Source: Octopus vulgaris
Lineage: Eukaryota
NCBI GenBank assembly: GCA_951406725.2
Contig: OX597828.1
Span: 7,998,001 to 8,062,000, forward strand
Length of the DNA stretch: 64,000 nt
Direction of reading: 5' to 3'
The notes under the pieces were generated by a model. The model did not search any database, was not told the DNA's origin, and worked only from the letters and a program-made list of their open reading frames with translations. This document shows, piece by piece, positions 2,737-64,000 of this stretch (positions are counted from its first letter, which is position 1; the number at the start of each line of letters is the position of its first letter). Position numbers and translations under genes: made by a program.

Positions 2737-3585
2737 AAGGCAGTGACCGGGCAGAATCATTACCGCACAAGTAGGTGCGGCGAAAGGCGGAGAGCTGGCA
2801 GAAACGTTAGCACGCAGGGCGAAATGCTTAGCGGTATTTCGTCTGCCGTTACGTTGTGAGTTCAAATTTCGCCGAGGTCGACTTTGCCTTCATCCTTTCG
2901 GGGTCGATAAATTAAGTACCAGTTACGCACTGGGGTCGATGTAATCGACTTAATACCTATGTCTGTCCCAGTTTGTCTCCTCTATGTTTAGCCCCTTGTG
3001 GGTAATAAAGAAATAGGTATTTCATCTGCCGCTACGTTCAGAGTTCAAATTCTGCCGAGGTCGACTTTGCCTTTCATCCTTTCGGAGTCGATTAGGTAAG
3101 TACCAGTTAGGCACTGGGGTCGATATAATCGACTTAATCTCTTTGTCTGTCTTTGTTTGTCCTATCTGTGTTTAGCCCCTTGTGGGTAGTAAAGAAATAG
3201 GTATTTCGTCTGCCGCTACGTTCTGAGTTCGAATTCCGCTGAGGTCGACTTTGCTTTTCATCCTTTCGGGGTCGATTAAATAAGTACCAGTTACGCACTA
3301 GGGTCGATGTAATCGACTTAATCTTTTTGTCTGTCCTTGTTTGTCTCCTCTATGTTTAGCCCCTTGTGGGCAATAAAAAAATAAGAATCATTACTGCACT
3401 GTGAAAAATACGTATCGACATTTTTCCGACTTTACGTTCTGAATCCAAATACCCGTGGGGTCGACCTTGTCTTTCATCCTTTCGGGGTCGATTGAATAAG
3501 TTACCAGCTGAATACTGGGGTGGATGTAATCGATATGTCATCCACAACCCCGAAATTACTGGCCTCGCGCTAAAATTTTAAATCA
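2737..3585 (+). mobile_element. SINE family B nest: younger copy with three ~184-bp tandem units inserted in an older family B copy
   Basis: Units start GGTATTTC at 2833, 3016 and 3200; flanking duplication AGAATCATTACYGCAC at 2753-2768 and 3384-3399. Confidence 0.85.
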
Positions 3586-6197: not shown

Positions 6198-6390
6198 TAT
6201 TGATTTCTAATTTTGGACCAAGGCCAGTAATTCCAGGAGAGAGGTTAATCCATTACATCGACCCCAGCTCTCTACTGGTACTTATTTTATCGAGCCCGAC
6301 GGAATTTGAACTCAGAACGTAAAGACGGAAGAAATAAGGTTAAGTATTTCGCCCTGTGTACCAACGATTATGCCATCATACCGCCTTTAG
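6198..6390 (-). mobile_element. SINE family B copy, diverged
   Basis: GGAATTTGAACTCAGAACGTAA and ATCGACCCCAG..CTGGTACTTATTTTATCGA are reverse complements of family B motifs. Confidence 0.75.
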
Positions 6391-7164
6391 TCATTTTATA
6401 TTAGTAATGAATTATGAAAGATAATGACTTTATTATATACAGCCTCTATCCCTCCTTAAGTAAATTTAATAATTTAATTTAATACAAGAGATAATTTAAC
6501 AGCCCCTAGATTCTTGAGCACGTCAAACTAATGAGATCAAACTAGATCGAAATAGTAACTATTTATTAATGCCGTTTAAGACTCAATAATTAAAATAGAA
6601 AATCGAAGTAAGCAAATTCAATAAAATAAAAGGATAAAAATGATGTACATTATTCCATTCCCTTTAATATCGAAAGTTAATGAAATGTAAGCTTGGCGGT
6701 AGTTTTGTATTTCCATAGAGGACAATCAATCAACAGAAAGACTTAAAATGTCACATACACATGACGTTATTTTTTTAATTATTATTTCAGAGAAGACTGC
6801 AGCGCTTTGGAAGAAATCTTGAGAATACGATGGCATACATATTCATTCTTAATACAGTGTAGCCAATTCGGAAATGAATAAGTGGACCACTGTTACATTT
6901 TGACGTTGGAAAACAACTCCTCATTTCAAATGAATGTGCCTTCATTATACACACGTCTATTGGAAAAAAATTTATAACGTGGATATAAAAAAGCTATTTC
7001 TTGTGTAAAATTTCAAAAGAAAGACAATGGAAGTGGTCCCAAGTCTCTAGCAGCCCCCTGAATGGAGCTAGGGCCATTTCCCAACATGTACAACATCGCA
7101 TTTCAAAAAATAAATGAAGAGTTTAAGGGATATATAATTCTTATCGGGTTAACATACCATTATT

Positions 7165-8320
7165 TTTTCGGTTTCATCTCAAAGCTGCGGCCAAGCTGGG
7201 GCACCACCGTTTTGCTACACTGGTATCATTGAGAGCCTTCTCTGATATGTGACATTTGGTGAATAAGGGAGTTTGATGTCACTGCCCTCATTTGCGCCTC
7301 CTGCCGCGAGGTAGATATTCTGGGACTCCCGACAGGAAGAGATCCAGATTTGTTTTGAAAACACCTACATTTACTTCGTGTAGGCCCCTCAGGATCTTTG
7401 AAAGAATGTTAAAAATCTTTGGGCCCTTGAAACATAGGCTGTTGCAGTAACTGGTCCTGAAATGCGACACCTTTTTGGGGAACTTTGGTGCTGTACATTG
7501 GCAAACAGTTCTGCAATTTATGTAGCTTTCAATGCCAAGATGTGACACTATCCCTTCAATGGTCTTCCAGATGTATATTACTGCTTATCTCTCCTGCCTT
7601 CGCTTCAGGGAGTAGAGTCTTAGCTGTTTCAGCCTTTCCCAGTAGCTGAGCTGTTGCAATGAGACGATCTTTTTTGTGAAGCTTCACTGCATTGTTTCAA
7701 GGTTCGCTGTTAATTTTACCCAGTGGAGTGACCATAGTTATGAGAAGTAGTCCGGACGGCTGAGGACGAATATCCTCCAGAGGACCATCATAGTTTCCTT
7801 ATCTATGGATTTAAAATCTCAGGATCAAACCAGCCAGCCGTTTGCACTTTGACGACATCTTGGTAATGTGCACTTGGACAGAGGTATCATCACTCATGTT
7901 AATACCCAAGTCACGCACTGGTTTACGTTCTGAGATTGTAATCTCCGCCGGGCAAGTGTACCCTGTATGTTTTTCGATCAGGTTTGCGGGTGGTAGCGAA
8001 GGGCTCGGAACTTTTCTTGCTTTAAATTGCATATTATTGTCCTCAGCCCATCTGTATATTACATCCAGCTCCTACTGCAGGCGTGCAACATCGATAGAGT
8101 TTTGCATTTTCTGCAAGACTTCCGTATCGTCTGCATAGATAGCAAGGGTGGCTATCCGGGCAGCTGAGGGCATATCTGAGAGAGCCACTATGAAAAGTAG
8201 TGGTCCCAAGACAGTGCCCTGTGGAACACCACTCACTATTTGTATTTCCTTTGAAGTGTCTCCATTGGCCACCACTGCTTGATTTCTATATTTCCGAAAG
8301 TCGTGTAACCAATTTTGCAA
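7165..8320 (-). mobile_element. CR1/L2-group LINE, 3' portion of the RT ORF plus 3' UTR, frameshifted
   Basis: Minus-strand peptides SGVPQGTVLGPLLFI, YADDT, RDLGI, YWERLKQLRLYSL, GPKIFNIL, FKTNLDLFL. Confidence 0.9.
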
Positions 8321-8339
8321 CTTGGAGAAGGAAGGCTAG

Positions 8340-9045
8340 ATATAAATCACGAAAATGACTTGAATCCATCAAAAGTTTGCACCTTGGTCAGCTCGGTTGA
8401 GGAACTTATTGAAAAAGCTTTTCCACGTATAATTTCAAGTTGCACAAATGCCACTTGGTTGTGAGAAAGAGCAACTATGGCAACAAAGAACGTTACTGTG
8501 AATAATTTAAATGAAAAACTCAAGAAACTTTTACCACCAAACGAACATACTTCTAAATATATAGACTCTGTTGTTGATGAATCGGAAATAGTCAATTACC
8601 CGGTTGAGTTCTTACAATCACGCAACCACCAGGAACTCCTCCTCATTACCTTCCATTGAAAATAGGAGCTCTAATTATGCTTCTGCGCAACCTTTCTGAA
8701 CCAAAGTTGTGCAATAGCACAAAGCTTGTCAAGAAAATAATGGGAAATGCCATATAGGCCATGGTGAAGATGTCTTTATTCCACGTTCAACTTTATTGCA
8801 ATCCAATGTGACCTTCGAGTTCAAACGACTTCAATTTCCAATACATCTGTCATTTGCGATGTCTATTAGTAAATCCCAAAGTCAGACTTTGAAAGGTGCT
8901 AGTTTACAATTAGAAGAGGACTGATTCTCCTACGGTCAGTTATATGTTGGGACATCCAGAGATCAATCCAGGATCAATCTTTTCATTTTTGCCCCCACTG
9001 GTAAAACGTAAAACAGTGTCTATAAGGAAGTTTTTACCATGGGAT
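8340..9045 (+). pseudogene. Helitron PIF1-like helicase C-terminal fragment, degenerate
   Basis: [57 protein letters not shown] motifs with stops and frameshifts. Confidence 0.85.
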
Positions 9046-9465
9046 TAACTAACTAAAATTTTCAGAATAATTGATAGCTTTGAATTGATATTGTCAACGT
9101 CACACTATATTCGTCTAAGAAAAGGTATTTGTATTTTAGTTTGTTGTAATACTTAACTTTAATAAATTATAGTATATATGTTTTTAGTTTTCTCCTAACT
9201 TTCATTTGCTATCTTGTACTAGGCATAAGCCAAAGTCTGTGCGATATTTGGTTCATTTATAGACTGAAATACTATAGATCATAGATCAGAAGTTTATATG
9301 CACCCACGATAATATTGGCCAGAAGAAAACAGCTTCATCGTTACATGGAGGTTAATAACCATTTCTTATATACGTTCAATACAATCTAAGTGAATAATTC
9401 TCAATATTCTTAGTGCAATGTTGGTAGCTTCTTTCAACCCAGTCAATGACGGGTGTATCTACTAG

Positions 9466-49116: not shown

Positions 49117-52100
49117 TGTATGTATGTATGTATGTATGCATGTATGTATGGATGTAAGTATAGATGTATGTATGCATGCATGCATGTGTGTATGTATGTG
49201 TGTATGTATGCATGTATGTATATATGTATGTATGCATGTATATATGTATGCATGTATGTATGTATGTATGTGCAGATTTGTGTGGTTTATGTCTATATTC
49301 TCATGCATATATATCTGCATATCTAGACATGCTCCTATATATTTAAATGATAAACTTCTGGTAAGTTTTACAGATTTTTACAGTCCCAGAGATGGACTGG
49401 ATCTGTAGTTTTCGAATTGGCATTCTCCTTTCTGTTCCTGAGAAGCCCAATTTCTCAAGATTGGTATTTAGGTAGTGTGTTACATATCCCTGGGTTCCAA
49501 TAATTACAGGTATAAACCTGAACTTGTAATCTGGATAGAGTAATGATAGATTTCTCAATAGTTCAGCATAGGTGTTCTCGTTTTCACTGATCTTCCGTTT
49601 TATGTTAACATCCGCTGTTAACATCCCCAACTATGCACAGTTTCTCTTCCCTATCCCAAATCATAATATCAGGTCTTTTGTGCTTACATTTTATTGAGGT
49701 CTTCACTGGTGAGTCCTAGCTACAACGTCATATCTCATCGGTAGATAATACCATGATGACATTTTTGGACAATTGCTTATGATGTTGGTGTGAACTTCAC
49801 AAAATTTGTTCGGCTGTCAAACTTTACGGCTTTACCTGCATCTCTATCCCTTTTGTGCATCAGGTACTTGGTTAATATTTCCCATTCCCGGATTGCAAAC
49901 GCATACCCTTCAAAGTGGGAGGTAGTAATCCGGCTATTCGTCAACTACTTTGCTGATCGATGTTACTATCATCATGGAGCTTTCTAGTAGCATATCCATG
50001 AATAGTCTTGTGGTCATATAGGCTCATCCGTTCATCTGATGATATGTTGCGGTAGAGTCTTGCGACTTCTTTGGGCATGTATTCTGGCTTATTAGACAAA
50101 GAGTGTTGCTCAAGTAGCTGCCTTCCAAGTCTTATGTTGTAATCAGCCTCATGTATGCAAACTTGGTCAAGCGATGGACTTCGACACTTGGTGGTTAAAA
50201 GATGTTGCTGAATGGATATGATGCCACATTCAAAGGCATTTTAGATCGATGTTAATGTACTTCCGCCTTGTTCTCGTTTAAATAGAGGCGGTCTACATCA
50301 CTGTTTATGTGGAAATTATGTGTGCTTGTTAGTATTTTTCAGGTTTTCGCATCAATGGCTCAGATCTCATCAAACGTCAAATCAAGCAGTCGAAATGTTG
50401 GTATGAGTACTTTCCCTTCAGACACATTGTGGGCCTCTGTTTTATGGAATGCAGAGAGTTCTGTGGTCCAAACTTTCTTTATTCAGCTGTAATATTCTTT
50501 AGTGACACGTGTTTTGCTACAGGTACCACTGTAATATATATTTTCATCCACCCCTAGATACCTGTAACATTCCTCATCAGATACAGGGGAAAAAGTCAAA
50601 TCATTAATGGAAATATTATTAGTCTGGTTTATAGTTTTCTCGCTTTTCACAACCTTAGAACAACATTTATCCTGACCAAACTCCAATCCTACATCCTTTG
50701 AGAATGTTATAACTAGGTCAAGGCTCTTTTTCATCTCATGCATATTCTTTGCATAAAGTATTAAGTCATCCACAAAGAAACAGTGTGTGATTTTGGTATC
50801 TCTGTTTCCTTGAGAACCAGTAAGATATCCGTCAGACTTCCTTAACAAGAATGACAAGGGGTTTACAGAAACTATAAACAACATCACAGAGAGGCTGTCT
50901 CCTTGGAATATGCCTTTGCGATACTGTATTCTATCGGTGATAATACATTCACTCTTTGTGTTTAATTTGAAGATGGTGGCCCAGAATGAACTCCGATCAG
51001 CTATGGCTTTTCTATTCTCACCGGAACTTTAGCAAGTTGAAGGGTATCCATGAGTGGTGAACAGAGTCAAAGGCTTTTCTGATAGCTAGCCACATTGAAA
51101 CTAGGTTACTCCTATGCTCTCGCACCTCTGACATCACAGTTTTGTTGATTAACAATTGTTAGGCACATCCCCGAACTCCCTTCTTTCCAGCTGTTTGTTT
51201 TACTGTGATAATGCTATTGGTTTCACAATGGTCCTGGCGGAAGAGGTTTAAACATGCTGTATTTATTTGATACATTAAGTTCTGACGTGCAATTGGCCGG
51301 TAGATTTTTTTTTTGCCATGTGTGTAGTTCTGCATTTTGGGATCAATTTTGTCCCTGCCAGAGCTAACCAGTGTGGTATGCTGCTGTTCCCAGTCAAAGC
51401 TTGATGGTACAGATTAATAAGATATGGTCTGTGGAATGTTAACTTCTTGTACCAATATCCAACAATCAAATCTCTTCGAGGTGCTTTTCTATTCTGGAGT
51501 TTCTGGATCACAGTTGCAAGAGTTTCACCAGCAATGTTGTATGACTTGGATGTAATGCAGGAGCAATCACTTTTCAGATTTCTTCCAACCACAGAGCATC
51601 TTGGTTATATTCTGTTGGTGGGGCGTATAATGATTTGCTGGTTTGCATGCAATAAGGATCATTCTTTTCTACTCTAGGTACAAAGCCTGAAATTTTGGGA
51701 TAGGGGCCAGTCGATTAGATCGACCCCAGTACGCAACTGGTACTTAATTTATCGACCCCGAAAGGCAAAGAAGACCTCGGCGGAATTTGAACTGAGAACG
51801 TAAATACAGACGAAATACCTATTTCTTTGCTACCCACAAGTGGCTAAACACAGAGAGGACAAACAAGGACAGACATGCGGATTAAGTCGTTATATCGACC
51901 CCAGTGCGTAACTGGCACTTATTTTATCGACCCCGAAAGGATGAAAGGCAAAGTCGACCTCGGTGGAATTTGAACTCAGAACGTAGCGACAGACGAAATA
52001 CCGCAAAGCAATTTACCCGGCGAGCTAACGTTTCTGCCAGCTCGCCGTCTTGCAATAAGGATCATTACATGACTGATGGTCTTCCGTAAACCAGTTAACT

Positions 52101-53724: not shown

Positions 53725-54167
53725 AAGGACGGTGAGCTGGGAGGAACGTTAGCACGCCAAGTGAAATACTTAGTGTTATATCGTCTGTCTTTACGTTCTG
53801 AGTTCAAATTCAGACGAGTTCGATTTTGCCTTTCATCTTTTCGGGGTCGATAAATTAAGTACCAGTTGCGTCCTGGGGTTCGATCTAATCGACTGCTCCA
53901 CCCCTCGTTAACAATTTCGGGCCTTGTGCATTCATAAGAAATGAATGCATGCATATATAATGGCGGCAAACTGACAGAAAGGTTAGCAGCCGGGCAAAAT
54001 GCTTAGCGTTATTTCGTCTGCCGTTACGTTCTGAGTTCAAATTCCGCCGAGGTCGATTTTGCCTTTCATCTTTTCGGGGTTGATAAATTAAGTACCAGTT
54101 GCATATTGAGGTTGATGTAATCGACTGGCCCCCTCCCACAAAATTTCGAGCGCCTAAAGTAGAAATG
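53725..54167 (+). mobile_element. Two head-to-tail SINE B copies
   Basis: Each has a head, TTACGTTCTGAGTTCAAATTC, GATAAATTAAGTACCAGTTGC and an AGAAATGAAT tail. Confidence 0.85.
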
Positions 54168-54207
54168 AATATATATGTGTGTGTGTGTGTGTGTGTCTGT
54201 GTGTATG

Positions 54208-54249
<42 letters not shown>

Positions 54250-54574
54250 TACATATATATATACGTACATACATACATACATACATACATACATACATAC
54301 ATACATACATACATACATACATACATACATACATACATACTACATATATAATGTTATGTAACACATGCCAAAATATATGGAAATGTATTACATGATATAG
54401 AATAAATTGTGTTTGCCAACGTAAAGTGGCTGTCTTGATTAGGACGATGTTACTACCTTTTTTTTTGCTCAGGGAAACATCTTTACCAGTTGGCTATCGA
54501 CGCAAAACTCCGTCCTTATACTTGCATGTAAGTATATGTATACAGTTCTAAATTTAAGAGATGATGAAATATCT

Positions 54575-54726
54575 ACATTGTTTACATTATTTACATTTGA
54601 CGGATATTTATCCACCTCTTTTTTTGTAAATACAACGTTTCGGCTGATACATCAGCCGAAGTGTTGTGTTAACAGCAAAGAAGATGAGAACAGATATCCG
54701 TCAAATGTAAATAATGTAAATAATGT
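54575..54726. repeat. ~150-bp palindrome made of two inverted copies of a Penelope-like terminal sequence
   Basis: ACATTATTTACATTTGACGGATAT..CGTTTCGGCTGAT / ATCAGCCGAA..ATATCCGTCAAATGTAAATAATGT; same sequence as 59940-59960 plus 60446-60500. Confidence 0.85.
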
Positions 54727-55140
54727 ATATATAACTGTAACCTCCCCAATCTTATAAACTCAAAGAATGTATTTAATTCGCTGTGTGAGCGTACGTGCGC
54801 CAAGCCACGCATATGCCTATGCTCATGTCTACGTGTAAGTTTCACGAGCGAATGGACGTGCGCCAGACATCTTAATTAAAGGCGTTTATACATCCATACC
54901 TTCTAACAGTTATATTCAATAAATTTTTGCTGTGTTGTGTATTTATTTTTTGTTATTTCTGATGTTATTGATCTTCTATAATAATGAAGCTGTGTCCCTT
55001 AATCTGCTGCTTTTGTATACACACACCGAGAAGAAAATATACGTTGTTTTAACGAGAAAGATCTTGAAGTCACCTGAAGCGACACATCTACACCGACGGA
55101 TACTCCTGAACCAGTTGTTCAGTATCCCACCCATGAGGGA

Positions 55141-55431
55141 ATTTTTTTTTGTTCCATCTCGAGCCATGCCTGGCTCATAAGGGTCGCTTTCCCGGTTTCT
55201 TGGCGTATAGGTTCCCCACCTGAACGGGACGCCGGTCTGTCGCAGGTGAGCTGCAAGATGCAGGAGGAAAGAGTGAGAAGTCAGCAGAAGTTTCGCCATT
55301 ACCTTCTGCCGGAGCCGCGTGGAGCTTAGGTGTTTCGCTCATAAACACAGACATCACACGGTCTGAGATTCGAACTTGCGATCCCTCGACCGCGAGTCCG
55401 CTGCTCTAACCACTAGGCCATGTGCCTCCAC
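55141..55431 (-). mobile_element. SINE family D copy
   Basis: Minus-strand head TGGCCTAGTGGTTAGAGCAGCGG..GTTCGAATC; CCATGAGGGA and CCATGAAGGA flanks. Confidence 0.88.
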
Positions 55432-56406
55432 CCATGAAGGATTGATGCTAGTTGGGTCGAAATAATTGTATGGATCGATAAACATACTTGTATCTTTCAA
55501 CTTCTGACTCTCATTAATCAAACATATGTGTGTATGTGTGTGTGTGTGTATGTTTCTATGCATGTATGTATTATTGAAATTGTGAATAAGAGCAAAACCC
55601 AGTGGCATGTTTAATAATTTCTTGGGATTTCATGTACAATACTTACGTCATTCACGAAAATGGAAACCATTCTTGTCTTGTATATTTTGACTTTGATTTG
55701 GTTATCTGACCTTCTTGAGTCTTCTTCTTCTGATGAGTATTTAGGAAATGGTTTGATAATCTTCTAAATGTCAATTTTGATTATATAAAAAACAAAACAA
55801 AATTGTTTTCTAATCTCTATTATTTGTGCATTGATTTTGTTTTCGACAGAGCCACCTGTATTCCCACCGCGAGACAAATGACTACTCACAGAAACTTTAA
55901 AATTTTGCTTGCTTCTTGAACTTTGTTGATGTTTATATGAGGAAAACTGTAGAATGCTCTTTTATTTTGGTTCTGAATTTTCGATATTGGCAAAATAAAA
56001 TTCCGATTAGTCGAAAAGCCAAAAGAAGTAATTATGTTCTTTTAGTGGTGACCAACATTACTTAGAGGTGACTTTTTCGCAAAAATTTCGAACATCTTAA
56101 CTGACAGAAACAACGCAAATATTAGGTTTGAAACTGTTTATATTATGATTCTTCTAGAAGTTTTCTAAGAACTTGAAAAATAATTATAATGAGTAATGTT
56201 CTGCGAATTAATTCATTCGCGATCGATCTATTTCTGATAAACGCTAAATTCTAGTACACATACCTTCATGAATACATACGCACATACAAACTCTTATTTG
56301 TATGTAAGTTCATATTTACAGAAACATAGACCAACACATCCAATTAAATATGAACTTACATATACAGTCTTACAGATAAACGAAAAGACGCTTTCACACA
56401 CACACA

Positions 56407-56484
<78 letters not shown>

Positions 56485-57948
56485 CACACACGTGATGAAG
56501 CATACTCGTTCGCTCATAGTCATTGTACACATTTATTGAAATCTACATGCACATACAAACACACAATCTTACATATGCACACACATGAACAAAGGTGTAT
56601 ATTTATATACACAACACATTACTAAACAGGAAATCAAATAAACCCGCATAGTTCCACATACACATTCCATACGCACGAACATTTACACATACATAACTAC
56701 ACACATACACACACATTCTCATAGCTACACTCATAAGTCCATACATGCACATACGCTCAGAATTAGACTGAAAAAAAGGAGCTTTTGTATAGCTGCGGGA
56801 TATGTGAGAAAAAACAGGTAAATTCACTTCAACAACGTTTTACCTTCATTTATATAGATTAACCAGATCTGAGGATTTAGTCCGTGATATAGGAAAAGCG
56901 TTTTTGTATGTGGTTGGAACATTTTGCATCTGACATAAGTTGAGAAAGAAATAGATTGGTTTTAAGCAAGAGTCGACTACGAGAGAAAGAGGTGGGAAGA
57001 GAGAAGAGAGGGAGAGAGAAAGGAGGGAGAAAGAGAAAGAAAGAGGGAGAGAGCGGAAGAGAGAGGAAGAGGAGAGAGATAGGCACGCAGAAAGAAACAG
57101 AGAGAGAGAGAGGGAGGGACAGAGAAACAGAGTGTGCATGTGCGCGAGAGTCATACATGCGCAGGCTCCAAGAATCAAGAAGATACAAGAACACTAACAG
57201 CACTGATGAAGGATGCAAATCCACAGAAGGAAATAAATTCAAAAAGCCGAACATGGAAGAACCTCTATCCTATAAAGATTCTGATTATCAAGAGATTCAT
57301 TGGATCATGGCACAGAATGCCGTACAGTGTTTATTTCAGTGCTTTGCGTTCTCTGTTCAGTTCTTATCGTGGCCTATTTATGCGTTTTAATTAAACTGAC
57401 ACTCGGTTTAGCACTAGCACCTGGTCCTCTGATGCCTTTTGTGGCGTTCATTTCGTTGCAAGCATTCGGCCGACTTTTGCAGTTTGAAGAGAGTTCCTCA
57501 CTTCAATCTCGGATTCCTCTATACCAAATAAATGATTAAATAAATAAAAAAAAATAAAGCCATTTTAAATAAGATCATCTTATTTAAAATTTTGTAAAGA
57601 TTGAATTCACACTTTTTAAAACTCAACTCTGTAAATACATTGTGTTATGTAGCGATGTTCATACATTGGAAGAATTTAAATATGCCGGAAGATAGAGAGT
57701 AAGGAGAACAATAATAAAAGAATAATATTTTACGGGAAGACGGAGAATTCCAAACAAGTAGAGATGATATAAATACATTTGATTCTATAGAAATATGAAA
57801 AGAATCTGCAGAACATTGTATTCAGTTGTTTCCATATATATTGCAGGTGAATATCTGAGCAAGATTCACAGCCGGGGGAGGAAGAAAACAATCGGTCGAC
57901 TTAAAATCTTTTGAGGAGAAATCCAAGCAAAAAAGTCTAATACACATC

Positions 57949-57979
<31 letters not shown>

Positions 57980-57989
57980 CATACATACA

Positions 57990-58023
<34 letters not shown>

Positions 58024-58029
58024 CATATA

Positions 58030-58095
<66 letters not shown>

Positions 58096-58102
58096 TTTAT
58101 GT

Positions 58103-58140
<38 letters not shown>

Positions 58141-58479
58141 GTATATACACATATATATGCAGGAATATATATATATACATATACATATACGTATACATAC
58201 GCATACTTATATACACACGCACATGTGTGTGCCTGCACGGGCTTATACACACACACAAACACACACACACAAATAAATGTACACAGATGCAAAAACGCAC
58301 ATACACATATACACAAGCGCGTGCAAAGAGATTTCAAATAGAAACACAAGGATATACATATCACAAACGTAATACTCAAACGGGTACACGCGTATATTTG
58401 TGTGTGTTTATTTATTCTCACATTTTAATTCCGAATGGATTTTGACTGGCCACCTGCTTGGTTGCAAGGTTGTGAAGGA

Positions 58480-58740
58480 AAGTAACTTATTTTGTTAATC
58501 ATCCGTTAAATCTTTAAAAATAATGTCTTGCAGATTTTTATTGTCTCGGGTATCGCGATCATTTGTAGTGTATGATTTAAAGATTTTCATTCTCTCCCCA
58601 GGAACTCTAGTTTAGTCATGCTTTGCTGCAGACGCGCTGGTATCTATCGCGGTGCTTCCGTAATAATAGGTACGAAAATGAAAGCGTATCTTTGATCCTG
58701 AATTTCCAAACTGCTTATCAACGGTTCATAGATATCCTCT
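58480..58740 (-). mobile_element. Diverged R4-like 3' end fragment
   Basis: YAFIFVPII..QQSMTKLEFLGRE similar to 48686-48935. Confidence 0.55.
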
Positions 58741-58897
58741 TTCTATCGTGTTTTTAAAACTGTATTGGTGTCCAGAGAGAGAAAGAGTGAGTGAGTGAAG
58801 GTGTGTGTTGTGATGCATGAATATTTTGCATATATGTGTAAGTGGCACTCTCTCTCTCCCTCCCTCACACGCATTTTCTTTCATATACAGGTACATA

Positions 58898-58986
58898 GCG
58901 GAGGTAAGGAATATGCACACCACCCGTCTTTGGCGTAACCCTAACTCTAACCCTAAACACCGGGAGTACGTATTCTTTACCTCAGC
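58898..58986. repeat. Small hairpin element enclosing telomere-type (CCCTAA) repeats
   Basis: GCGGAGGTAAGGAATATGCAC and GTACGTATTCTTTACCTCAGC are inverted arms; TAACCCTAACTCTAACCCTAA at 58936-58956. Confidence 0.7.
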
Positions 58987-59559
58987 CCATAAATACATAT
59001 GCACACAACATTTTGTGCGTGAGAGAGAGAGAGAGAGAGAGAGTTTTCATGCGCGTGCGTGTGACTTCATTTCCTTACAACATAGAAAAATGGATGCAAT
59101 TTTTTGGCTTATTTTAACACAATATTTATGTGTATATTTTCATGTATATTTGTTCCAGTAGAATTCTACGCATCAGTGAAACATTGGACGGAAGTGAAAC
59201 ACCGGAAGGAAATGGAAATATTGTCCGAATATGAACTGAAAATTGTGCGTCCCAACCTAGTTGCCAAGGTTATTTTAGTTGTAAAAAAAGAATTGCTGAG
59301 TCAAAAACATAGTTTATTTGGTAGATAGATAATAAGCAGCTTTCTTTATTATGATACAGATGCGACTAATTTGGAGAAACATTACTTTCATTATTCACAC
59401 ATCGCCACTCCCGAAATGCAACACTTTGTAATTTTGGTTCAAATTGGAAGTCAAACTATTTTCATTTTCTAATGAAACCTGGTCGTTGTAGAGAAGTGTA
59501 TTTGGAATAACTATAGCTGATTGTTGAGATAAATAAAGTTCATTTGACATGTGTAATCA

Positions 59560-59835
59560 ATTTGATTGTTTTGTTCTTAACATCATTTGGTAAGAATAGA
59601 TGTCGTTTGACGACACCTTTTTGTTTGTAATTGGCTATCCTGTTGCAGGTTCAATCCGTGGAACATTGAAACGACACCCATTTTGTCCATTCAATAGAAT
59701 AAGAGTATACTGGAGAGCATGATAAGATGGATGAGTCTGTGAAACATGTAAAAGGTTGTTATCTCGAATATGAATGAGAATATCATGATTTTCATGGGGA
59801 TCACCAACAATAAGGATGGCAACTTCATTAGACAC
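59560..59835 (-). pseudogene. Helitron Rep-region fragment
   Basis: NEVAILIVGD..HDILIH..LLHVSQTHPSYHALQYTLIL..GQNG. Confidence 0.8.
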
Positions 59836-59912
59836 AACAACAACAACAACAATAATAACAATAACATCGAAATATACCTTAGGAATAAGAACACAAGTTC
59901 GAAATTACCCCA

Positions 59913-59960
59913 AGACACCTGAAGAAGGCTGGAGAATATATCAGCCGAAACGTTGTGTTA
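59913..59960 (+). ncRNA. Minimal type-I hammerhead ribozyme motif in a Penelope-like terminal repeat
   Basis: Stem I GACAC/GTGTT; core CTGAAGA(A); stem II GGCTG/CAGCC; GAAAC-GTT with no stem-III loop. Confidence 0.7.
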
Positions 59961-60428
59961 GTTAGTTAATTAGTTAGTTAGTTAATTTGGCTCAAAAGCA
60001 AATAGCAAGGCCATGTAGGGGGACATGGAGTTAAGTACAGGGTGGTGTTCACGTAAAGAGTTCAGGCCACTTGAGGTCCAGGGAGGCTTTGAACAAAGCG
60101 GTCGTCGGCATCTTCACCATCTCGTCTGGCAGCTTGTTCCACGGATCCGCAACCCGGACGGAGAAAGCTCCTCTCCTTCGATTGAGATGAAATCGTCGCA
60201 GGTAGAGCTTTTCGGAATGACCCCGCAGCCGACGCTCCGGAGCAGGAGTGAAGAACAGCTCTTTCGAGAGGTTACACTTCCCGCTTATGATGTTGTGGGC
60301 GAGAATGAGATCACCACGGCGGCGGCGTTTTTCAAGAGAATAAAGGTCGAGCGTCCTCAGCCTTTCTTCGTAGGACAAATTTTTGAGACCATGAACCATG
60401 CGGGTAGCCAGCCTCTGGACTCTTTCGG
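59958..60428 (-). mobile_element. CR1-clade LINE 3' end with open ORF remnant and (TAAC)n tail
   Basis: ERVQRLATRMV..LSYEERL..LYSLEKRRRRGDLI..LRGH..FSVRVADPWNKLP..FKASLD; TTAGTTAG repeats at ~59958-59985. Confidence 0.92.
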
Positions 60429-60647
60429 AATTAATAATATAGAAATTAATAATAAACAAGACGAGAACAAATATCCGTCGAATGTAAATAATGTAAATAA
60501 TTTAAATAATGTAAAGAATGTACAAGAGAGTATTGTTCTTAAGCCGAAATTGTTACTAATGTAAAAACAAATGGAATAGTGAAACTATTGTTTGGTTTGG
60601 TGAAAAGGCAACATTTTGGACTTACGACACTTTAGCATAATATCAAC

Positions 60648-60683
<36 letters not shown>

Positions 60684-60686
60684 CAT

Positions 60687-60748
<62 letters not shown>

Positions 60749-61223
60749 ATGTGTGTGTGTGTGTGCGTGTGTGTGTGTATGTATGTATGTATGTATGTAT
60801 GTATGTATGTATGTATGTATGTATGTATATATCAGGCCTGTGCCGTGAGTTATTTCTCGGGGCAGGCAGTTGGTGATTTTTATGTAGTAAAAAACAAAAT
60901 TATAAGCGAAATACAGTCGCGCGACTGAGTTGAAGGCCTGTAAAGATAACGGTGTTGTAGGAGTGTGCAGCACGCGTACTACAGCACTACTATGCGTAGG
61001 TCAAATACTGAGGTTGAAAAGCAGGGGCGAATTATGCCAACCTAGCCTACAAAAAAGAAATAAAACATTTTGGATTTTATGCATAGTAATCAGAGTAGCC
61101 TTCAGAAATTTTTGAATTAGGTGCATATTTTCCCATAAAAGGAAAATGCTCTCATCGATATATTTTACTTAACGTAGGCACTATCTACTCTGCCTACATA
61201 GGCGGTACGTCCATTATATATAT

Positions 61224-61986
61224 GAACTCTTTTAAAAAAATTCTGTTGACCAGCTTTCCTCGATTTCAGCTCTACGTGTTTTCTGTAGCGAGTAAATAAT
61301 ATGTGGAAATAGCCGATTTAATAGTCTGTTATCACCATATTGGCATAGAAATAATTTTCTTTAGCCCTTGTTTATAAGTTGTTTATAATTTTAACCTTAA
61401 AGGTATTTTAATATGCTGCCACATTTTCTGATGAAATTTTTTCTGTAAAAATGCTTCATCCTATATTAGTAGTAGACTTATTACTATTCGCTATAAGGAC
61501 TGGTAACCACTATAAACTGTAGTGGAGAACAGTTCACACGTGTGCTGAGGCTGACCAAAGGATTTTATATTTAGATATATCTGGGGTACTTATATGTACT
61601 CACGATTTTTGCTTCGGCTTTTTTCCATGGGCACTTGTAAGTTTTTCATTTATGTCTTTCCGTTTTTTCTACTGAAGAGGAAAAAATCTATTATGAGATT
61701 AATTCCGAAATTGATTCAATATAGAAATAACGAACTATTTAAAAAAAATTTTGTTGACTAGCTTTCCTCGATTTCAGCTCTACGTTTTTTCTGTAGCAAG
61801 TAAATAATATGTGGAAATTGCCGATTTAAAAGTCTGTTATCAGCATATTGGCATAGAAATAATTTTCTTTAGCCCTTGTTTATAAGTAGTTTATAATTTT
61901 AACCTTAAAGGTATTTTAATATGCTGCCACATTTTCTGATGAATTTCTTTTCTGTAAAAAAGCTTCGTCCTATATTAGTAGTAGAC
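61224..61986. repeat. ~255-bp direct repeat (61224-61477 and 61732-61986)
   Basis: Both copies run GAACT..AGCTTTCCTCGATTTCAGCTCTACG..TATATTAGTAGTAGAC with few substitutions. Confidence 0.9.
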
Positions 61987-61990
61987 ATAT

Positions 61991-62046
<56 letters not shown>

Positions 62047-62052
<6 letters not shown>

Positions 62053-62325
62053 CAAAATGGGACAAGAACGCAAAACATCCAGACAGTTAGGTAATACAAG
62101 AAAGGGAGAACAAAATATTCAGATTGATGATACAAAGAAAACAAGGACAGGTCATTCGGAGTTTTCTTTCCTCAGTCGAGTTCCAGATTATCTTTGCAAT
62201 TTTGGTTGGTTATACTCGAGATTGCTCCAATCTGGCGAGCCCCATGAAAAGAAGTAAGCTAACAGCATTAGACTCCTTGAAAGAAAGCAGCGAATGTATA
62301 CGAAAACAAGGACGGACAAGAACGC

Positions 62326-62326
<1 letters not shown>
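62047..62326 (-). mobile_element. Interspersed repeat related to 5185-5462
   Basis: Shared blocks in opposite orientation; both copies lie between microsatellite runs. Confidence 0.55.
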
Positions 62327-62393
<67 letters not shown>

Positions 62394-62564
62394 GTGTATG
62401 TATATAAAATATTATTTATTATTATTTATAAATATTCTTACATTTACTTTTTACTTCAAGCAACATGAGCCAAAATCTGTGACCCTTTTGGGATATCGAA
62501 TTTTGTGTAAATGGTTCCTATTTCACACTCACTTTCTTTCTGGAAGTCTGTATTAGTTTGAGTG

Positions 62565-62611
<47 letters not shown>

Positions 62612-63119
62612 TGTATGTGTGTGTGTGTGTGTGTGTGTGAGTTTGTGTGTGTGTGAGTTTGTGAGTGTTTTTACGCGTGTGTGTAAAATGATCATTAACA
62701 CACATTCGAATTCATCGTTGTTTTGTACATCCAGTTCACTCAAATCTGATCATTCAAATCTGTGATTAACGACATTTCTGTTCTCACCACCCAGGATGCC
62801 GCAAGAAAAAAAGAGTCACTGAAGTTTCTCATCTTTGATAAGTGATGTGTTTACTGATTTGTATAAATCCTTAACTTGTGTTACATACTAATTGATTTGC
62901 TTCCTACCGTGGGGCAAAGAGAGAGAGAGAGAGAGAGAGGAGGTAGAGAGAAAGAAAGAGGTAGTGAGAGAGAAGCGAGAGATGCTGTCGTAAGAGTCTA
63001 CTGTGCAAAATGACTCGTCCTTAATATATTAATCTCCTAGGTATGAACTTTGATTGTAGAATTTGACAGGATTTGGATTCGGTTCACTTCATCACGAATA
63101 TATTTATAGAGAATATATT

Positions 63120-63335
63120 GAATTCAGATTTTGGCACAAGGCCAATAAAGTTTTGAGAAGAGTTAAGTCGATTACAGCTAAATCCAGTGCTCAACTGGTA
63201 CCAATTTTATCAACTCTGGAAAGATGAGAGGTAAAGTCGATCTCAGCGGAATTTGAACTCGGAATGTAATGACGAAGCGGAATGCCGCTACGCATTTTCC
63301 CCGATGGGCTAATGATTCTACCAGCATGCAGACTT
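63120..63335 (-). mobile_element. SINE B copy, diverged
   Basis: GGCACAAGGCC, CAACTGGTAC and GGAATTTGAACTC motifs. Confidence 0.7.
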
Positions 63336-63440
63336 AACTATAGTAAGTATATCGGCACATCGTTCAGAGCCTTATTTCGTCTAAAAGTTTCCCAGGTTCG
63401 TTTTGAAGCAAAAAAAAAAAAAAAAATTCATACGGCATAA

Positions 63441-63835
63441 GAGTGGCTGTGTGGTAAGTAGCTTCCTTACGAACCACATGGTTCCGGGTTCAGTCCCACT
63501 ACGTAGCGCCTTGGGCAAGTGTCTTCGTCTATAGCCTCGGGCTAACCAAAGCCTTGTGAGTGGATTTGGTAGACGGAAACTGAAAGAAGCCCGTCGTATA
63601 TATGTATGTGCGTGTGTATATGTTTGTGTGTCTGTGTTTGTCCCCCCAACATCACTTGACAACTGATGCTGGTGTCTTTACGTCCCCGTAACTTAGCGGT
63701 TCGGCAAAAGAGATCGATAGAATGAGTACTAGGCTTACAAAGAATAAGTCTTGGGGTCGATTTGCTCGACTAAATGCGGTGCTCCAGCATGGCCGCAGTC
63801 AAATGACTGAAACAAATAAAGAGTAAAAGAGAGTA
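63441..63835 (+). mobile_element. SINE family A, full-length
   Basis: Head to tail match with 10898-11368. Confidence 0.9.
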
Positions 63836-64000
63836 GAGAGTATAACCTCATTGGAACAAGTTTAACGAAGGAGTAGTCAATTGTTGTTAGTTTTATTTTT
63901 TGAGTGCCCCATCATTTTATCAACTCCAGAAGGTAAGTTTAACCTCAACGTGGTTTGAAATGAGAATATAAGAAAACATGATTAAATGCAGCAGACCTTT

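Follow-up and report, generated by a model that had tools for sequence, protein, structure and literature searches.

An intact minimal hammerhead in a dead, LINE-split end repeat of an octopus Penelope/Poseidon-type element whose RNA was likely made from a captured tRNA-Arg promoter and likely copied mostly uncut

Metazoan Penelope-like elements (PLEs) carry minimal hammerhead ribozymes within the pLTR (PMC4209133; Cervera and De la Pena, 2014). The motif that we analysed in a 64-kb stretch of octopus DNA (the window, by which we mean the whole stretch of 64,000 nucleotides) is like these ribozymes in its core, in an extra nucleotide that separates position 9 from 10.1, in the pair G10.1-C11.1, in a 5-bp helix I, in a loop-less palindromic helix 15.2-16.2, in its pLTR location and in the occurrence of mostly single or opposite-strand copies. 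It differs in helix II, which has 7-8 bp in S. mansoni (canonical 4 bp) and 5-6 bp in the octopus motif. It also differs in that the octopus copies are uniform (91.5% to consensus), whereas the earlier study stressed heterogeneous families with covariation. The accessible part of PMC4209133 contains no octopus, mollusc or cephalopod case and names no tRNA.

Poseidon_Ac of the green anole has been studied in vitro, where its ribozyme cut only in the presence of the element protein; insertion did not need the ribozyme (Frangieh et al. 2024, PMC11167929). The octopus element is similar in several respects: the ribozyme overlaps the start of the ORF, its cut comes after the start codon, copies have their 3' ends at two sites within the first ~170 nt of the ORF, targets are AT-rich (ATT) and there are no RNA ends at the cut (PMC11167929). 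The start codon lies 30 nt before stem I in the octopus element and at stem II in Poseidon_Ac. No tRNA-derived head is described for Poseidon_Ac in the accessible part of that report. The role of PLE hammerheads, and the start and translation of PLE RNAs, are described as open questions (PMC8557442, PMC11167929).

The SINE-like repeats Sm-alpha and Sj-alpha of Schistosoma also combine a Pol III promoter and a hammerhead in one short retroposed unit, and differ in being non-coding, often tandem and cleaved out of multimers (PMC6765202). By comparison, the octopus unit belongs to a coding Penelope, of which it forms the end repeat, its ribozyme is loop-less and minimal, and its Pol III promoter is putative. 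Octopus also has tRNA-derived SINEs, OK, OR1 and OR2, reportedly described by Ohshima and Okada in 1994; OR1 and OR2 we take to be derived from tRNA-Arg. Passages in the later literature cite OR2 as a CORE SINE. Compared by description only, these SINEs resemble our unit in having a tRNA-derived head in a short high-copy repeat, and the unit may already be filed as an OK/OR1/OR2-type SINE or in Repbase. An octopus repeat annotation (PMC13282606) mentions neither ribozyme nor hammerhead in its accessible part, and its one supplement is without a sequence library. A search of open-licence PMC and bioRxiv texts found no coding Penelope with a pLTR that joins a hammerhead to a Pol III promoter.

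Our reading, to which we give a probability of roughly 0.68, is that the window holds an intact minimal hammerhead in a dead, 5'-truncated and LINE-split pLTR copy of a Penelope/Poseidon-type element, the RNA of which was likely made from a captured tRNA-Arg promoter (likely by RNA polymerase III, Pol III) and likely copied mostly uncut. The original prediction had placed a hammerhead with an intact core and one extra A at 59913..59960, and its letters, stems, core and extra A were all recovered in the window sequence. Its limits included one spare A per side, the real span being 59914-59959; the cut that it predicted after 59954 is at the correct position. The motif is a minimal type-I hammerhead, with a helix III without loop, and consists of these parts:

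59914-59918, + strand: 5' strand of stem I, GACAC (sequence, fold).
59919-59925, + strand: core C3 to A9, CUGAAGA, with N7 = A as in a minor subfamily (sequence, pattern, subfamily linkage).
59926, + strand: extra nucleotide A between 9 and 10.1 (sequence).
59927..59946, + strand: stem-loop II, GGCUG at 59927-59931 and CAGCC at 59942-59946 (fold).
59947-59949, + strand: G12-A13-A14 (established hammerhead numbering, PMC4209133).
59950-59953, + strand: loop-less palindromic helix III, ACGU (sequence; numbering as in PMC4209133).
59954, + strand: U17, with the predicted cut directly 3' (sequence).
59955-59959, + strand: 3' strand of stem I, GUGUU (sequence, fold).

The predicted fold of 59914-59959 consisted of stems I and II exactly (-12 kcal/mol, z -2.73), and 3 of 200 shuffled sequences folded equally well. 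Stem II has five Watson-Crick pairs plus one sixth G-U pair in the MFE fold, with G10.1-C11.1 as the closing pair. In the standard hammerhead numbering, A14 and U17 are core residues and lie outside helix III. The palindrome AACGUU had been read as a loop-less stem III; it is indeed loop-less, but its outer A and U are A14 and U17, and helix III is ACGU only. The catalytic dimer helix therefore has 4 bp. We computed an energy of -1.7 kcal/mol for this intermolecular helix and of -5.7 for a 6-bp duplex with flanks; the two-strand MFE fold exchanged stems rather than forming the helix III pairing. Dimer cleavage would be plausible for the family.

The PLE-type features at the motif are a CUGANGA + GAAA core, an NUH triplet, the extra nucleotide 9/10.1, G10.1-C11.1 and a helix I of 4-5 bp. 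A loose core pattern matched once in the 64-kb window compared with 0.01 expected (1 in 100 shuffles). Because Rfam gave no hammerhead family among 86 matches at E<=10 in 54000-64000, the hammerhead call rests on pattern, fold and genomic context.

That context is a split copy of the pLTR, and a second insertion of the same family lies about 5 kb away:

59839..59862, + strand: (AAC/AAT)n tract of the pLTR and 5' truncation point, tRNA-derived head absent (alignment with the reconstructed unit begins at 59839).
59863..59913, + strand: pLTR segment before the ribozyme, with the family's first in-frame ATG mutated (alignment to family consensus).
59960..60427, - strand: 468-bp piece of a young LINE, 5'-truncated and ending in (TAAC)n (ORF, genome copies).
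60428..60445, no strand assigned: AT-rich filler that contains a short duplication and separates the LINE 5' end from the resumed pLTR (sequence, junction).
60446..60510, + strand: remainder of the pLTR, with ORF start and 9-nt repeats (89% match, alignment).
54540..54731, no strand assigned: two 5'-truncated copies that make up another, separate insertion of the family.

The LINE was inserted directly 3' of stem I, and 59957-59960 are common to LINE and target; the GTTA repeats past 59960 are the tail of this LINE and lie outside the ribozyme element. The LINE fragment is very young. It gave 927 first-look candidates in the genome and was found at 100% identity in at least 39 other places, and all 11 of the other copies examined had the same (TAAC)n tail and longer 5' ends. 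It had no Pfam match, and we take it to be CR1-like from its C-terminal motifs. Beyond the LINE, the pLTR copy ends at 60510, in the first of the two clusters into which the 3' ends of the family fall (see below). The family's start codon ATG reads ATA at 59885-59887. In the second insertion, two truncated copies are joined head to head inside stem II to give a palindrome without the catalytic core. We found no second intact hammerhead motif in the 64-kb window or in the next 30 kb, and complementation by tandem copies, as had been suggested, is not supported here. The window copy is a dead fragment that has no promoter, start codon or partner and whose priming tail is displaced; it is most likely inactive. 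The ribozyme pairing is still intact despite the truncation and the LINE split. Elsewhere in the window, 49941-51604 holds broken minus-strand frames of another reverse-transcriptase element, and 2833-3383 is a tandem array of three 184-bp units that are 87% alike.

The family is large. A search of the 2.8-Gb genome with the 101 bases that surround the motif returned 2,223 first-look candidates; 40 of these were scored, at 92-100%. A 24-mer downstream of the ribozyme had 5,924 exact genome matches (control, 0), which, as exact matches only, are a lower bound on pLTR copies. Given that copies are ~8% off consensus, the true copy number is likely in the tens of thousands. Decay and covariation were followed in 234 copies spanning the ribozyme, many of them picked by exact patterns; 30 loci chosen for their likeness to the window were left out. 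The consensus of these copies keeps the full hammerhead core, which is kept in 76/234 individual copies (core and stems in 42/234). Core positions varied as often as the flanks, and CpGs varied most. The copies decay neutrally after insertion. Covariation among genomic copies had been put forward as a check on the original prediction, and it was absent: no recurrent two-sided (compensatory) change was found at the 10 stem I/II pairs in the 234 copies of this genome. This does not refute a ribozyme in the source elements, because neutral copies of few source elements give the same result.

The main non-CpG substitution in the motif was T to A at N7, the sole free core position (34/234). N7 = A marks a subfamily that includes the window copy and has linked changes in head and tail, at +63 (p 7e-7) and +228 (p 4e-14). 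This pattern fits constraint on the source elements, though it concerns a single site. Together with the presence of the diagnostic sequence features of PLE minimal hammerheads, in the place where PLEs carry them, it speaks against a chance look-alike within a coding repeat that was never a ribozyme. Such a look-alike would explain the absent covariation and the lack of an Rfam match, and the reading frame across the motif could by itself hold the sequence; even so, we find it hardly credible. We classify the ribozyme, from its sequence features, as one more member of the described class of minimal PLE hammerheads.

A relic of a Penelope-type minimal hammerhead had been predicted, and a coding parent element was indeed found in the genome. 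It came from a degenerate pattern for a Penelope/Poseidon RT motif, which matched 118 places, with the same unit of head and ribozyme ~1 kb downstream. The end of the ORF was present in 39 of 70 RT-motif loci; in 35 of these 39 the head came next, and 24 of the 35 had the ribozyme. Among spacer-anchored copies, the head followed in 28/30. Two loci (L153 and L171) are pLTR-ORF-pLTR partial tandems, in which the sequence past the ribozyme continues into the ORF. Majority reconstruction gave a 2,622-nt unit with a single open frame of 823 codons, the 5' third of which rests on 7-18 copies. This frame starts 30 nt before stem I, crosses the ribozyme and stops 29 nt before the next head. A unit runs from the stop of the ORF through a spacer of 29 nt, the tRNA-Arg-derived head, (AAT)n, the ATG, the hammerhead and the 9-nt repeats into the rest of the ORF. 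Two natural copies matched RVT_1 (4e-9 and 1e-10), and look-alikes of the element in the Atlas carry RVT_1/HTH_animal at 0.96. Reading the reconstruction by eye, we found RT followed by a GIY-YIG endonuclease without Zn-finger linker. The parent can be classified as a Penelope/Poseidon-type retrotransposon; its clade, assigned by eye from RT motif and linker, is presumably Poseidon.

The insertions themselves were followed in two samples of 70 copies, one anchored at the tail and one at the head. The two samples share part of their copies and were drawn from one chromosome arm (all our samples lay in the initial part of one or a few chromosomes); some inverted pairs are represented by both halves. 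The 3' ends of 70 sampled copies fell into two clusters ~35-40 nt apart, 39/70 at +243 to +262 and 27/70 at +282 to +296, and an opposite-strand ribozyme lay within 1.45 kb in 33/70. An optional 30-40-bp tail and an inverted 5'-truncated partner have been described for PLEs (PMC8557442; PMC11167929), and the insertion marks of the family are those of Penelope-like elements.

The 30 best GIY-YIG loci that we examined included none of this family; they belong to other, Neptune-like Penelope families without this pLTR. We rejected the assignment of these families to Naiad, the endonucleases of which are N-terminal (PMC8557442). One young Neptune-like family (L061-L073, for example G000:C16:20834500-20841500) has many intact 781-codon RT + GIY-YIG frames, the start of which is overlapped in L064 and L069 by a 479-codon upstream frame; a simple scan past the ORF showed no clear canonical hammerhead. 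A different hammerhead family, in which stem-loop II is long and helix III is the palindrome CGAUCG, occurs as an inverted pair in L039 (~454 on the + strand and 208 on the - strand), and L070 holds a weaker hammerhead candidate.

The original prediction had also considered a retrozyme-like family. Metazoan non-LTR retrozymes (PMC7229834; bioRxiv 10.64898/2026.07.22.740005) share the type-I hammerhead and a tie to PLE pLTRs, from which animal retrozymes have been proposed to derive (bioRxiv 10.64898/2026.07.22.740005), and the octopus motif could be part of a non-autonomous repeat that cleaves itself from tandem arrays into circular RNA. The definition of a retrozyme asks for tandem units that each contain a ribozyme, whereas a same-strand ribozyme within 1.45 kb was present in only 3/70 octopus copies. 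Moreover, the copies are not circularly permuted and have fixed 3' clusters and a fixed 5' wall, and the unit directly forms the end of a coding element. The retrozyme reading seems largely refuted by these sequences, and we consider it very improbable.

Many copies of the family carry a 73-nt tRNA-like head upstream of (AAT)n, which the window copy is without. The head aligns ungapped with host tRNA-Arg(ACG) genes (confirmed as tRNA genes by ARAGORN), 44/73 positions being identical; the identity was 18/22 in the A and B boxes versus 26/51 elsewhere. ARAGORN found no tRNA in 9/9 element loci, and Rfam found none in L092. The head is best described as a decayed tRNA derivative that has lost tRNA folding. 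Our initial reading of the head as a separate tRNA SINE was dropped, since the head directly follows the ORF. In the host genome, ~20 tRNA-Arg genes (ACG with some TCG) are clustered at G000:C2:211,887,000-211,908,000, many of them ~206 bp apart.

Most copies begin at the head. Of the 70 head-anchored copies, 58 had their 5' limit at about -12 to +21 of the head, one at -26 and 11 in the ORF, and the commonest limit was at -7/-6. Apparent ends at -10 to -34, when examined by a strict walk, were mostly fold-back junctions. The downstream module was present in 60 of the 70 and the ribozyme in 56. Genome-wide, a 21-mer of the head had 4,006 exact matches, compared with 863 for a 21-mer of the spacer just upstream. 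This wall at the 5' edge means that the template RNA ended there. Two other sources of the wall were rejected: for cutting by RNase P, the acceptor stem no longer pairs and the wall lies 6-7 nt upstream; and a stall of reverse transcription at a tRNA fold would pile up ends at the 3' edge of the head, where 3/34 copies end (+21 to +75).

A type-2 Pol III promoter initiates a few bases upstream of the tRNA body, and Pol III terminates at runs of four or more T. The reconstructed 2,622-nt unit has no T4 run on its sense strand and 13 T3 runs, and each T3 site is T3 in most copies. Two Neptune-like Penelope ORFs of like T content had 8 T4 runs each (8-10 over the counts made in Neptune-like ORFs); an RTE-like ORF had only one in 1.4 kb. 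The chance of zero T4 was 0.008 with single bases, 0.018 and 0.046 with codon re-draws, 0.08 with dinucleotides and 0.21 with trinucleotides, and the absence of T4 as a hint at Pol III is suggestive only. Taken together, the start wall, the kept boxes and the absence of T4 point to likely transcription by Pol III.

An ordinary Penelope could also have this structure if a tRNA-derived SINE head had landed once in its pLTR, with a Pol II promoter of the pLTR near the head and the short copies being truncations. Protein-coding RNA usually needs a cap, the zero T4 count falls in the range of chance when dinucleotides or trinucleotides serve as the null, and an internal pLTR Pol II promoter would likewise produce a 5' wall; indeed, the Penelope of D. 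virilis has an internal TATA-less, LINE-like promoter (PMC2377424). However, the wall stands 6-7 nt before the head, at the start position of a type-2 Pol III promoter, the boxes are kept (18/22) while the rest has drifted (26/51), and 0 T4 in 2.6 kb contrasts with the 8-10 of the Neptune-like ORFs. We regard transcription by Pol II as unlikely, though less so than the other alternatives discussed here.

A further explanation is that solo head copies with their own Pol III promoter became a true Penelope-driven SINE and were the source of most short copies, with the element protein acting in trans. Such copies pack promoter, ribozyme and priming tail into ~290 nt with no internal terminator, and N7 = A was commoner in solo copies (22/102) than in ORF-linked ones (1/29, p 0.026). 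We did not, however, find a lineage private to solo copies: N7 = A copies were ORF-linked in 3/19 head-bearing cases, and N7 = A occurred in 4/19 scorable spacer-anchored copies, about the usual rate (11/70 and 34/234 in the whole family), so that a subfamily private to solo copies was dropped. Internal priming near the 5' end of full-length RNA would yield the same short copies in cis. The unit resembles a SINE and may work like one; because full-length RNA can yield short copies and N7 = A is also ORF-linked, we do not file it as a separate SINE, and we judge an independent SINE to be improbable. We propose instead, tentatively and with odds short of even, a coding Penelope with a captured tRNA-Arg promoter that would be transcribed by Pol III end to end across a 2.6-kb unit that would have been kept without T4 terminators. 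Its uncapped RNA would be translated from the ATG 30 nt before a hammerhead that can remove the start codon, and its SINE-shaped copies, in the tens of thousands, would arise by internal priming close to the 5' end.

Whether the RNA was cut before it was copied can be judged from the 5' ends of the copies. In the numbering of the unit the cut site is +191. The 70 tail-anchored copies began in the ORF (5), in the spacer (1), at -16 to +20 of the head (25), inside the head (3), in (AAT)n (19), before the ribozyme (8), at the 5' arm of stem II (5) and at +190 to +194 (4). Since 66/70 thus begin upstream of the cut, the templates were mostly uncut. A search for junctions near the cut gave 368 matches; the first 100 of these were read by eye and were spread over +187 to +198, with no single-base peak at the cut. 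The commonest class among these 100 was a fold-back at the palindrome one base after the cut. This class always passes the filter used in the search, and it was not counted as a footprint of cleavage. Some cleavage in vivo is compatible with the 4/70 starts at +190 to +194 and with the fold-backs near the cut.

Two features of the 5' ends may be mentioned separately. Among L081-L150, 5/70 ends lay at +161 to +165 (5' arm of stem II) and none in +166 to +189, perhaps owing to template switching at the hairpin. Copies that start in (AAT)n often abut (AAT)n tails of other repeats (L012, L017, L019, L026, L027, L086, L110, L119, L130, L134 and L140), as if the cDNA end had annealed to the tail of the other repeat or the endonuclease had cut there.

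RNA reads were taken from three runs of one study (~6% of each run), the species label of which differs from that of the best DNA holder. We found 6,353-9,104 reads per run on a copy, equal in both directions. RNA ends at the cut, which had been suggested as a test of the ribozyme, were not seen: in the three runs, neither read starts nor read ends piled up on the unit. As 77-82% of the reads ran on into unrelated sequence, they appear to be mostly passenger copies inside host transcripts and carry little weight. None of the indexed records that hold the unit was registered as RNA. We conclude that the genomic copies likely derive mostly from uncut RNA and that cutting itself is likely rare.

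The source element may then work as follows. The A and B boxes would place the start of transcription ~6 nt upstream of the head. The element protein would nick AT-rich DNA, as in Poseidon_Ac, and reverse transcription would begin at two internal sites of the RNA, which lie ~120-140 and 160-175 nt past the ATG, again by comparison with Poseidon_Ac. Copying back to the 5' end of the RNA would give the SINE-sized copies, which number thousands, measure 200-300 bp and often stand in head-to-head pairs; the ORF-bearing copies would arise when copying begins in the downstream pLTR of a tandem read-through. The ribozyme would be off in a lone RNA, because its helix III has no loop, and would cut only when two motifs pair via ACGU, most likely held by a tandem transcript or by the element protein. 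Since the cut would lie in codon 24, the start codon would be lost; cutting would thus serve as occasional processing or as an off switch rather than as a step required for insertion. Self-cleavage is reported to be able to start cap-independent translation (PMC13725137), a route that would need another start here, as the octopus cut lies after the first in-frame ATG, and on which we do not build.

The ribozyme is thus of a known kind, and the novelty lies in an element with a tRNA-derived head that is likely a Pol III promoter. In this family a span of 300 nt takes in a mappable start site, the start codon, the ribozyme and two priming sites. Its thousands of dated copies record which RNA was copied: mostly uncut, beginning at the tRNA-type promoter. 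If transcription by Pol III is true, a coding mobile element would here use the polymerase of tRNA genes, and SINE-like repeats would have a Penelope as their source; in such genomes, some of the repeats classed as tRNA SINEs would then be ends of Penelope elements. There would also be a direct route from a Penelope end repeat to a SINE and to a promoter-plus-hammerhead repeat of the Sm-alpha type.
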